A stretch of DNA of 64,000 nucleotides from Cenococcum geophilum (lineage: Eukaryota): positions 1,116,001 through 1,180,000 of the forward strand of contig CP158635.1 of NCBI GenBank assembly GCA_050273025.1, read 5' to 3'. Numbering within the stretch: the first letter of the stretch is position 1; each line of letters starts with the position of its first letter. Positions 58,790 through 64,000 of the stretch are shown here, in pieces. Made by a program: the position numbers and the translations under genes. The notes beneath the pieces were generated by a model, which worked only from the letters and a program-made list of their open reading frames with translations, did not search any database and was not told the origin of the DNA.

Positions 58790-60143
58790 CAACCGAGATA
58801 GATCCAATCCAATTGCGTCACTGGCTGCGCGCAGGCCGCATCCAATGGCTTTGAGTATGTGTGGATAGACACGTGCTGCGTTGACGAATCTAGTAGCGCG
58901 GAGCTCTCGGAAGCCATCAACTCCATGTACCGCTGGTACCGGAATGCGGCCATACGCTATGCTTACCTATCGGACGTGCCAGCGCACGACGCAGAAATAG
59001 ACCCCCCCCCCCAAAAAAAAGCCAGTGGTTCACAAGATGGTGCCCACTGCAGGAACTCCTTGCGCCTGAGTACATCGTATTCTACGGCGCGGGATGGGCG
59101 GAGATCGGGACGAAAGCGAGTTTAAAGGAGACTATCTCCCAGATCACGGACATCCAGATTTCTGCTCTATTGCTGGGTCGGGGGACGACCAATTCAGTAT
59201 AGCACAGAAAATGTCCTGGGCCTTTAAGAGGAAAACGACTAGAGTTGAGGACATGGCCTACTCCCTTATTGGTATTTTCGGAGTAAATATCCCACTGCTG
59301 TACGGCGAAGGGGAGAAGGCTTTCAATAGACTGCGGCTCGAGATTCTCAGCTCGTCGCAAGACACGGCCACCTTTGCGTGGACCGCGCGCGGCACTTCCG
59401 ATTCCGCGTTTGAGGGGAGAAGGTCCTGTAAGGCTGATAGGGGCTTGCTCGCCCATTCACCTGTAGAATTCTCTGAATGTCGTGATATCATATGGGTTGG
59501 TGGTGAAAGTAGCGGTGGAAAGCTAGCTTCAATGACCGCTATGGGATTGCGGTTAGAGATGTGCCTTGCAGAAGAAAAATCTACGGGGACGTCTGTTGGG
59601 GAACGAAAAGTTCCGGATGCAGGCCTCCGTCTCGCAGTCACACCGGAGAGGCTAAGCGGGAATCGGTATTGCAGAGTCGATTACGAGACTGTCCGAACAG
59701 TACAACTCGACTGCATAGCGGATTCTGCGGAATCATTAACAAAGCCGGACTACAAGAGAATTGTGTTAGCGGACGGCTCCACTATGCCTATCGAAAAGAT
59801 AATTATTTTTGTCAGAGAAGCAAGTAGTTAGAAGAGAATGTCGGTGAAATTAGACTTTACAGTCACAAAGGTCTTATCGCGGAAACCGATTTTTCAGACA
59901 GACATCCACCCTGTGGATTACTGGCGCTTCGGGGACGGGTCTAACTTCGACACCTACGCTCACCAGATGGGCCAGCCACGGATGAGGTCTGGTCTTAGAA
60001 CGCGCCATGGAGGAGCCGTAATATATCAAAACAGCAACAGAAGCTTTCGTACTTATTCTGAGGCGTATCTACACGAACGTAAAGGACGTGGCTTTAACAC
60101 GCAACTTTCAGTACTCTCTCATCGCGGCGCAGATTATAGCTGA
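58790..60143 (+). pseudogene. HET-domain (heterokaryon incompatibility, HET-E-1-like N-terminus) gene, 5'-eroded and frameshifted
   Basis: Three frames in turn: YVWIDTCCVDESSSAELSEAINSMYRWY...YAYLSDV; then QWFTRWCPLQELLAP; then SIAQKMSWA.KRKTTRVEDMAYSLIGIFGVNIPLLYGEGEKAF.RL. Frameshifts fall at the C10/A8 run (~59002-59020) and at ~59180. Stop at 59831; the 3' extent is uncertain. Confidence 0.85.
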
Positions 60144-60627
60144 ACCTGATTGTGTGGATTAGATTTGCGTTTGCTTGCTGGGGGGAAAGTCGGTGTGTGG
60201 CCATGAAAAGAGAACGTGTTGCAGGCGACCTGATCTATGCCGTAGAAATCTCAGTGGTATGACAACAGCGGAAGATGAGATATTAATAAAGCTTGGAACA
60301 CTAATGCCCAAATTTCTTCCGGTTTATTTGCTGGGTTCCCCGTACATAGAATTAGCTGGACAATTCCTGCTAGGGAGAAAAAGGGACCGAAGGGTATTCC
60401 AAGTTATATGGCTGTTAATTCCCTTACGCTAGCTTTACTTTTGGATTCGTACTTCTGTCTGGTTGCAGTACAACCTTGAACCAGATCCGTCCCAACAGTT
60501 TTTGGTCAACGCGTTCCTAAGGCACGATCTCCGCATGATGTAACAACTCACTTATGGTCACGTCTCCTCATCTCTAGCAGCATACAGCTCATGAAAAGTT
60601 CATGATTTTAGCAGGTAGCGTTCGCTA

Positions 60628-62918
60628 TCACATAACCATGCCCTTCAAGCTGGCCATATCCCCTTCTTTGGTGGTAATTTCGAAATAGCTGTAGATGATT
60701 CTAGGATCGAATTGTTAGTAACTTTCGGGGTCCAGAAGTCCTTTAGGGTGATTCTAGAATTTTGAACGACTTACGTCACAGCCATCAGAATGCCTGTGCC
60801 ACTTCCCAAAGCACCTAGTAGGTCGCTGGTTACGGAAAGTGCTCCGATGCAAGCTCCACCAAACGCCGCCGCAGTAGGGATGACCCTCTTGAGCTCTTTA
60901 TACATGCTCTCTTCACGGTGGCCCGCTATGACTAGACCTTGTTCTTTAAGCTGCTTCGCGACATCTCGAGGGGATGATCCAGACACCTCTATCCACGTCT
61001 TTGAGAACATAGCACAAGCAACAAGCATGAAGGTAAAGTAGGCAGCAGTGTGAAGAGGTTGAAGCAGAGCGTCACTGAAAGATAGTGGCGGTGACATGTA
61101 GTAGGCAATCCCGGAGGCAGCGTGTAGTTGGCCGGAACCTTCCGTAATTTCCCACACACCAAGTAGGCGGACAAGGACGTTGTCGGAGAAGCGGGAGAAC
61201 AGCGCTTGGGAAATCATGAAAATATTTGATGAGAGAGCACTTTGGAGCATAATGGGCCTGAGGAGGATTAGCATATGCACATCAAGGTGATTTAGGAACA
61301 TGCATTTTTTAGAAAATCGCCGAAACTCACATATTGGATGTGTAAAACAGGCGGACCGGGTAAGAACCCCGCATGCCACGCTGACGGGATGACTTGACCG
61401 GGCTAATCACGATTAGTGCGTTTTATCAACAATATATGATGCACCTTACATTTCGACGCGGAATCCTTGAAGGTAGATGACAATAGCAAAGACCAGGACA
61501 GTGCTCATCAGCTGCATAATGTTTGGCAGGTTTTGTCGATAAAATGCTTCGCGGAGTGCGATTTGTTTGTTGGGCCAAGTCAAGAGGAGATGGACCAGCG
61601 CGACAATGGCTCCTTCGAACTCTGGAAAATGTTAGGGGATGGCAGGATAAGAGGAACGGAATAGCCTACCCGGCCCTCGTCCTGTGTTGATGGTGGTGGG
61701 ACTGAAAGCTTTCCATACGATTGACTCACAGATATTTGTGGCAACTACAAAAATGTCAGTGTCTTGCATCCCGAAATTAGAATAATTACGAAAGACTTAC
61801 TGAATAAAGAAATACCACTGCCAAGACCATAACCCTTTTGAAGTCTACAGATAGGAGATATATTAGAAATACTGCTTCTCCGAAAACAGTTCAAATACAG
61901 CTCACAATTCATCGAGTAAAATTACGATCAAACCCGCAATCATCAATTGGACGACGAGCAAAACACAGACACCCGCACCTAGTTCGGTAGGGCGTCCATA
62001 TGTGCCTAGGGGAGCCGTTAATAAATGCGGAAGCAACAGAAGTAGATTCTTGCTACCTGTTATTACCATGACAGAAGCTTGGCCGAAAGATATAACCAGG
62101 CTGAGGAGCTAATAACACTGAGTAAGGTGCAACACGGACAGGAGATAAGCGCAAGTGGCAAACCTTTTGGGCAGTTTGATAAAGCTCACGGTCCGTTTTT
62201 AGCTATTGCAGGTGTCAGAAATGCCATGTAAAGCTGAGGTCGCTCGTAGCCTACGTCCAAGTTGACATCGATCGAGTGTGTACCGGCCAGGAGCTGGAGT
62301 GCATTAATTCTGACTATCGCCAAGCATGGCGTTGAATGTTACCTGGAAAACCATGCCTGACGAAATAATGGGTGTAATACCAAGCTCCATCAATGTCCCT
62401 CGGTTACTAGCCATCATCATTCTTGGAATATTATTAATTCGATGCCACGCTACTTAAGTCTAAGCAGGTGTGCTTGCCTTAGCCACATTACCGGATCCGA
62501 TGAGTCTGAGTGAGCATGGTCAGTCTCCCAAATGCTTGTGTAGCACATCGCCTTCACTTGCCTGAGGACACAATGCCATAGAGGGGCATTTGGCTCATGA
62601 CTAAGAAAATCAATAGTGTCAAAGCCGTCCACATCAACTTCTGATTGAATACAATCTTTGTTTCGGGAGCAGCGACCTAGTGGGGTGTCAATGCGTGGAC
62701 ATGGATGCGACTGGAGTTCGACGTACCTCGGGGAGGAAAGGCGTGAAGGCTTGCAAATGGTATTTAGTTCCTAGTCGCAATAGTGTTGGGTATGCGTGGA
62801 GTGCACTCACGCTTGACGATATCGAGAAATCGGACTAAAGATAGAAGAGGGTATCAGCATATAGTTTAATTGAGTTTCGGAGCAGTAAAGATATTAATAA
62901 AAACTTACAGCCGCTCAT
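60628..62918 (-). CDS. SEC61: Protein transport protein Sec61 subunit alpha, 16 exons, 475 aa
   Basis: Exons 62918-62909, 62834-62811, 62749-62727, 62676-62562, 62505-62478, 62421-62343, 62293-62255, 62202-62164, 62108-62057, 62005-61906, 61844-61801, 61744-61670, 61621-61450, 61402-61331, 61257-60775 and 60700-60628 sum to 1428 nt in frame. Translation: MSGFRFLDIVKPF...[15 protein letters not shown]...[20 protein letters not shown]...[15 protein letters not shown]...[18 protein letters not shown]. Confidence 0.97.
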
Positions 62919-63648: not shown

Positions 63649-64000
63649 ATGCATCTGCAGCAATCCCAATCCGCGGGACCTGGCGTTACCGAGGATGCCG
63701 TGAAACCTCCCAAGCAGTTCGCGGAGCAGTCCTCGAGCTTGCCGTTCGGCCAGGAGCTCTCTCTGTCCTCAATTAGCGGGCCTACCTACTTGACTGCTCA
63801 GGCTCTTGTCCAACAAGTCGCCTATACGCTTTCCGACAGGATATTTACATATTCGTTGGAATCATTCGATCTGGATGCCGCTGCCAAGCTTTGGGTCTCA
63901 AGGAAAGAGAAGAATGCTTTCGGATATAGAACTGGTGTGTCATTTATGGAGACGCGAACTGGTGCAGCTTCAATTGCTCTTGGGTACATGTTTTCTAAGG
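63649..64000 (+). CDS. MET10: Sulfite reductase [NADPH] flavoprotein (alpha) subunit, 5' part; runs off the window
   Basis: MHLQQSQ...LPFGQELSLSSISGPTYLTAQALVQQVAYTLSDRIFTYSLESFDLD...METRTGAASIALGYMFSK resembles the N-terminus of filamentous-fungal Met10 orthologues. The frame is open to the window end. Confidence 0.8.
   Translation, partial: MHLQQSQSAGPGVTEDAVKPPKQFAEQSSSLPFGQELSLSSISGPTYLTAQALVQQVAYTLSDRIFTYSLESFDLDAAAKLWVSRKEKNAFGYRTGVSFMETRTGAASIALGYMFSK

Follow-up and report, generated by a model that had tools for sequence, protein, structure and literature searches.

The window, the whole 64,000-nucleotide stretch of Cenococcum geophilum DNA that was analyzed, carried a minus-strand gene for a SEC61 alpha paralog, here called copy B, with 16 exons encoding 475 amino acids (Table 1). 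The spliced product was identical, letter for letter, to C. geophilum protein P0121. All 15 introns were found as joints in the RNA contigs of X13 and 14 of the 15 in those of X15, which indicate the presence of a transcript and not its level; a splicing artefact was rejected, since the introns are present in the RNA contigs. The protein matched PF00344 (SecY, 255.8 bits) and PF10559 (Plug_translocon, 56.9 bits) over the full length, and its predicted structure (pLDDT 71) showed a ten-helix translocon fold with 9i78 as the best Foldseek match (E 1.6e-47, TM 0.89). Copy B shared a gene island of about 9 kb, surrounded by AT-rich DNA, with a HET-domain-like gene and a sulfite reductase flavoprotein gene, which we take to be MET10-like from its domain set. 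The frame of the HET-like gene is split close to a poly-C/poly-A tract (about 59003-59020) and has several small indels in another sample, so this gene is probably decaying. Positions 1-58000 of the window showed a GC content of 0.27-0.49 per 2 kb, high TpA/ApT, and hardly any long frames, that is, repeat DNA with a RIP-like signature. The X10 DNA run, from another sample, covered 60234-62788 with 41 differing letters and no listed indel in the exons, and half or more of the words were present in 20 of 24 listed runs, four of which were possibly the source. In X21 raw RNA reads of a divergent strain, with approximately 12% of the run read, there were zero reads on copy B and a depth of 50-80 on the MET10-like neighbour; silence, deletion, or divergence would each fit this result.

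Table 1. Features of the copy B locus (window coordinates). Counts are comparison rows having the same residue, among 85 full-length Pezizomycotina-like rows and, where a second count is given, among 253 further stored proteins that contain the TM3 motif.
Feature	Position	Strand	Basis or count
HET-domain-like gene, at least 2 frames, no shown part in the system	58802..59831	+	PF06985, E 3e-8 on 58802-59122
SEC61 alpha paralog (copy B), ATG at 62918, stop at 60628	60628..62918	-	Gene model, RNA contig joints, Pfam, fold match
Copy B exons 1-8	62918-62909, 62834-62811, 62749-62727, 62676-62562, 62505-62478, 62421-62343, 62293-62255, 62202-62164	-	
Copy B exons 9-16	62108-62057, 62005-61906, 61844-61801, 61744-61670, 61621-61450, 61402-61331, 61257-60775, 60700-60628	-	
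Two GC-AG introns flanking the 28-nt exon with the plug changes	62422..62561 (62561-62506, 62477-62422)	-	CT..GC-ended joints in X13 and X15
Plug codons Val63 and Met64 (human F62, Y63; fungal consensus Leu, Tyr)	62486..62491	-	V63 0/85, M64 1/85
Met133, TM3 (human Y131, apratoxin-resistance position; published allele His, not Met)	62067..62069	-	0/85, 0/253
Thr138, lumenal end of TM3 (human M136; residue as in cotransin-resistance allele M136T)	62001..62003	-	1/85, 3/253 (one cluster)
TM7 lumenal end: Met305 (also Mytilinidion/Lophium), Ala309 (Gloniaceae only)	61203..61217	-	Row comparison, model helices
TM8 region: Gln357, Phe365, Met374, fixed in 4 Gloniaceae rows	61008..61061	-	Row comparison, model helices
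Sulfite reductase flavoprotein gene start, divergent from SEC61, extending past the window	63649..64000	+	Domain set

The first-pass annotation had proposed a search of the genome for a second, canonical SEC61, and protein and family searches of the assembly (G000) located exactly two SEC61 loci, which rejected the idea that copy B is an allele of a sole copy. The other locus, copy A (P0180, 476 amino acids, 2 introns), is the canonical one; it lies on a different contig, C3, at about 9892829-9894414, adjoins a TRAPP subunit gene, and encodes a protein 84% identical to copy B (pN 0.12 and a saturated pS of 0.78). The two copies together are known from G000, and 15 of the 187 members of the copy A cluster were listed; the copy B cluster had 10 members, the named ones being from Cenococcum and Glonium stellatum. 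In a published expression table, a single Sec61 entry, 476 amino acids long, is 2.2-fold down in mycorrhiza (PMC5023957). This length matches copy A, and copy B would also fit if the stop was counted, so the entry was set aside.

In a 36-row tree, copy B was sister to the Mytilinidion/Lophium form (99/96), which keeps L, Y, Y, and L at positions 63, 64, 133, and 138, and copy A was sister to Pleosporales (100/99). A single clade of A and B was rejected (p-AU 0.0033), and with it a recent duplication within the lineage; a 76-row quick tree agreed. The separate clades of the two copies indicated that the duplication is old; the pocket changes probably came later and arose in the Gloniaceae line, as far as can be judged from extant rows. 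A retrocopy was also rejected, because copy B has 15 introns, copy A having 2, and some of their positions, absent from copy A, are common to other fungi: 279 (28 of 81 loci), 1355 (60), and 172 (4). Ten copy B intron positions were absent among the 81 fungal loci in a comparison that may overlook small exons, and the intron richness reflects either heavy intron gain or unusual retention. A long-branch Sec61 was also seen in the P0092 cluster (Xylaria, Nemania, and Ustulina; 76% identity to copy A), which keeps Y133/L138 and is without gate clustering; other Xylaria proteins belong to the canonical cluster P0030, so the P0092 form is probably a separate duplication.

As first annotated, the RNA-supported spliced model read DPVMWLR in the plug and [27 protein letters not shown] in TM3/loop. 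Alignment with mammalian Sec61 alpha chains matched fungal positions 63/64 to F62/Y63, 129 to Q127, 133 to Y131, 138 to M136, and 302 to N300. The equivalence to human M136T that had been claimed was correct in that Thr occupies the M136 position, but the fungal wild type there is Leu (81 of 85 full-length Pezizomycotina-like rows), so the change is from Leu to Thr. These 85 rows, defined as those at least 77.5% identical to copy A among 134 full-length rows, had the consensus L, Y, Y, L at the four positions, and none of the copy B residues occurred in more than one of them. At position 133, the 253 further stored proteins containing the TM3 motif had Tyr (206), Phe (43), His (4), and no Met, and at position 138 they had Leu (219), Met (30), Thr (3, all in one cluster), and Asn (1), row sets being drawn from 90% clusters and their listed members with uneven species sampling. 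In the metagenome loci with the TM3 motif found (77 of 80), Thr138 was present in two and Met133 in none. The substitutions were thus rare among fungi, beyond ordinary variation. All of V63, M64, M133, and T138 were present in the four full-length Gloniaceae rows (mutually 94-99% identical), and codons 64, 133, and 138 of copy B each differed from copy A in all three bases. A search for the VM/M/T set beyond the copy B cluster gave no relative above 87% over residues 45-175; the metagenome exon P0277 (a cluster of 2) had four of nine large-exon B markers in common, and this exon excludes the gate codons. Copy B kept the fungal consensus at I82, I86, I181, I185, M294, Q129, and N302, with the five pore-ring positions mapped with certainty, and R67 was retained. 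In yeast Sec61 the residues are Val133 and Asn138, in agreement with the earlier caveat that these positions vary there.

Lone changes at these positions were seen elsewhere, namely Met63/Met64 in P0020 (Polycauliona MAG), Asn138 in P0046 (Elasticomyces), and Ala64 with several plug changes in P0060 (Verruconis). Thr138 was found independently in a Sordariomycete-like SEC61 (L027:10001-11317, and L028). From a reading of frames, the neighbours of the L027 gene were homoaconitase-like, tRNA isopentenyltransferase-like, and ABC transporter frames, and no NRPS/PKS motif was found around it. Thr138 was rejected as a general cluster marker, since this sole other lineage sits among housekeeping genes.

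Twelve fixed rare residues were restricted to Gloniaceae (positions 63, 64, 100, 124, 131, 133, 138, 309, 318, 357, 365, and 374). Eight of them lay in gate helices (113 sites), none in the other helices (142 sites), and four in loops (176 sites; Fisher p=0.0013), where the helix limits are those of the AlphaFold model with pLDDT 71, and the gate set (plug, TM2b, 3, 7, and 8) follows published papers but was chosen with the residues already known. Background variability was equal across the three site classes (0.107 in gate helices vs 0.109 in other helices), and the four B rows, which are not independent of each other, ranked 1-4 among 35 rows put through the same test. With hand-set zones, 13 of the 22 rare residues of P0121 were in the plug and gate helices, against an expectation of 5.5 (p=5e-4), and 3 of 79 other rows matched that fraction; 7 of the 22 were in the lumenal pocket, against an expectation of 2.6 (p=0.008). 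The earlier statement that divergence clusters at the plug and lateral gate while the rest is conserved therefore stood for the clustering and was too strong for the remainder, 9 of the 22 rare residues being outside the gate zones. At 15 published resistance sites (11 from Table 1 of PMC8585047, P83 and V102 from PMC11695074, and E78 and N300 from preprint 10.1101/2022.08.11.503542), copy B was changed in two and unchanged in 13, a borderline excess (p 0.03-0.06, weighted draw).

The absence of a biosynthetic gene from the window, as first noted, extended to the 194 kb around copy B, where reading for long frames gave the HET-like gene, the MET10-like gene, one membrane-protein-like frame, and repeats only. 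Domain searches found no NRPS/PKS within 0.79 Mb; on C1 the nearest condensation domain was at 10.2 Mb and the nearest ketosynthase at 0.38 Mb, approximately 0.79 Mb from copy B. No linked NRPS or PKS cluster was thus found near copy B. The NRPS check that had been proposed did reveal an unlinked, N-methylating 11-module NRPS on contig C7 (456450-503414, minus strand, loci L015-L020), a different contig from those of both SEC61 copies. It was a single open frame of 15,655 amino acids with eight methyltransferase domains, in modules 2, 4, 5, 6, 8, 9, 10, and 11, in which many modules are near-identical and the correctness of the assembly is uncertain. In its first A domain Gly replaced the usual Asp, which, by comparison with enniatin-type synthetases, presumably indicates a hydroxy acid. 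A six-module sister NRPS with three methyltransferase modules faced it (421111-445701, plus strand, L012-L014); the first modules of the two were 96% identical, and the sister gene had a TAA at 441280-441282 in its fifth full condensation domain. An amidase gene at about 507171-508992 adjoined the 11-module NRPS. The amidase of the KK-1 cluster has a Cenococcum amidase, possibly this one, as its best match (PMC10512319), and the adjoining gene ties this NRPS loosely to a KK-1 type cluster and not to a Sec61 blocker. Among the published NRPS rows covered, for 19 of 21 places (PMC5023957), there was no protein as long as the 11-module NRPS.

The M136T and Y131H resistance alleles cited in the first-pass annotation were confirmed in the literature. 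Human M136T was selected as a heterozygous, dominant cotransin-resistance allele with lowered cotransin binding (PMC3913039), and Y131H gives apratoxin resistance with cross-resistance to cotransin (PMC11695074); a listing of resistance sites gives M136 for decatransin and mycolactone as well, and Y131 for apratoxin (PMC8585047). A plug-gate pocket binds all seven inhibitors studied and coincides with the signal-sequence site and path (preprint 10.1101/2022.08.11.503542).

Copy B is intact, spliced, and conserved beside a canonical copy, and its changes are clustered. The reading that we tentatively prefer, while holding it somewhat short of probable, is that copy B may be an inhibitor-tolerant second translocon. 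On this reading, an old duplication among Dothideomycetes gave rise to a second functional Sec61 alpha subunit, whose plug and lumenal lateral gate were reshaped in the Cenococcum/Glonium line (L63V, Y64M, Y133M, L138T, M309A, and others) with retention of the pore ring, Q129, N302, and R67. The loss of two tyrosines and the Thr at 138 might make the plug-gate pocket a poorer binding site for blockers of the cotransin/decatransin type and, because M136T is dominant over the sensitive allele in human cells, a second tolerant copy could be enough for secretion. Copy B might then act as a spare translocon in certain conditions, protecting against blockers released by competitors or made by an unlinked cluster of the fungus itself. 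Several observations count against tolerance. Cotransin, decatransin, and ipomoeassin F still inhibit the growth of yeast, whose Sec61 has Val133 and Asn138, with a lower affinity suggested and other blockers poorly effective (preprint 10.1101/2022.08.11.503542); Thr138 is also present in the apparently housekeeping SEC61 of L027; the resistance allele described at Y131 has His, a residue that 4 of 253 ordinary rows also have at position 133; and most listed resistance sites are unchanged, with no linked producer gene.

Inhibitors and signal sequences use the same pocket, so resistance and client choice would both account for the clustering. Copy B may instead be a client-specialized translocon that takes a different clientele of signal peptides or membrane segments, a role like that of Ssh1 alongside Sec61 in yeast, with any drug tolerance as a side effect, which we consider possible with appreciable doubt. 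The changed helices form the signal-sequence path (preprint 10.1101/2022.08.11.503542), the resistance positions are mostly also prl gating positions (PMC7427319), and the clients of yeast Sec61 and Ssh1 differ by signal-peptide hydrophobicity (PMC10233368). The duplicate is older than the VM/M/T changes and is retained without them in Mytilinidion/Lophium, and the presence of its transcript varies between X21 and the X13 and X15 samples, also as client specialization would allow. However, client choice does not predict exactly Thr at 138, and copy B is far closer to copy A than Ssh1 is to the copy B model (30%), with the pore ring and polar cluster kept. Relaxed selection on a dispensable duplicate, matching resistance sites by chance, would suit the difference of A and B at 16% of residues, the small gene island amid AT-rich repeats, the lack of X21 reads, and the borderline excess at resistance sites. 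It appears unlikely against an intact gene conserved across Cenococcum and Glonium, the low pN beside a saturated pS, and changes that avoid the other six helices.

Within the preferred reading of an inhibitor-tolerant translocon lies a narrower proposal, namely that copy B evolved resistance that shields the fungus from its own candidate Sec61 blocker, an N-methylated cyclodepsipeptide of the unlinked C7 synthetase. The Sec61 blockers known from fungi are NRPS products of the cyclic depsipeptide type (PMC5897483, PMC12502043), and the 11 modules, eight methyltransferase domains, and hydroxy-acid-type first A domain would be in keeping with such a product. However, 11 modules do not match the known blockers, which have 7 or 10 residues, the NRPS shares a contig with neither SEC61 copy, and the neighbouring amidase points loosely to a KK-1 type cluster (PMC10512319), which makes the proposal quite improbable. 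The self-resistance paralog in the usual sense, as first suggested, was not borne out, because there is no linked backbone gene and the duplication is old and common to a saprotrophic relative.

Copy B belongs to an ordinary family and has an unusual anatomy: it is a second Sec61 alpha that has been retained, with a selectively rebuilt plug and gate. To our knowledge, filamentous ascomycetes are usually taken to carry one Sec61 alpha. In the literature covered, which leaves most subscription journals outside, no account was found of Cenococcum Sec61, a Dothideomycete Sec61 duplication, or a SEC61 self-resistance copy. The gene offers a natural experiment on a pocket that serves all the studied Sec61 blockers and is also the signal-peptide path. 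If copy B is resistant, Sec61 blockers would matter ecologically and it would be a marker for producer genomes; if it is client-specific, a pair as close as 84% would allow the determinants of client choice to be mapped. If the fungus does make its own blocker, a widespread root symbiont would produce a compound capable of stopping secretion by rivals or by the host root, and additional copies of SEC61 that carry this residue set would point to new Sec61 inhibitors.

In comparison with known systems, copy B is a member of the Sec61 alpha family, and is neither Ssh1 nor a cluster-embedded resistance gene. It nested in Dothideomycete Sec61, in a tree that did not include Ssh1, and showed 30% identity to Ssh1 chain 2ww9 against 59-61% to yeast Sec61 chains. 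Like yeast Ssh1, it is a second Sec61-family pore beside an essential one, and a client split is possible. Fungal biosynthetic clusters may embed self-resistance copies of housekeeping targets. Copy B likewise is an extra target with binding-pocket changes at inhibitor sites (2 of 15; clustering p=0.0013) while the normal copy is kept elsewhere, but it has no nearby backbone gene, and it represents an old duplication retained across two families, not one travelling with a cluster. The lab-selected human SEC61A1 alleles M136T and Y131H resemble it in having Thr at the M136 position and a non-Tyr residue at the Y131 position, whereas copy B is natural and fixed, has Leu138 as its fungal background and Met, not His, at 133, and is only a putative resistance form. 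Canonical Pezizomycotina Sec61 alpha (P0180, Thermomyces lanuginosus 7kak, and Chaetomium thermophilum 9i78) is like copy B in Pfam domains, fold, pore ring, Q129, N302, and R67, and the copy B family differs from it by the 12 Gloniaceae-only fixed rare residues, eight of them in the plug and gate helices.
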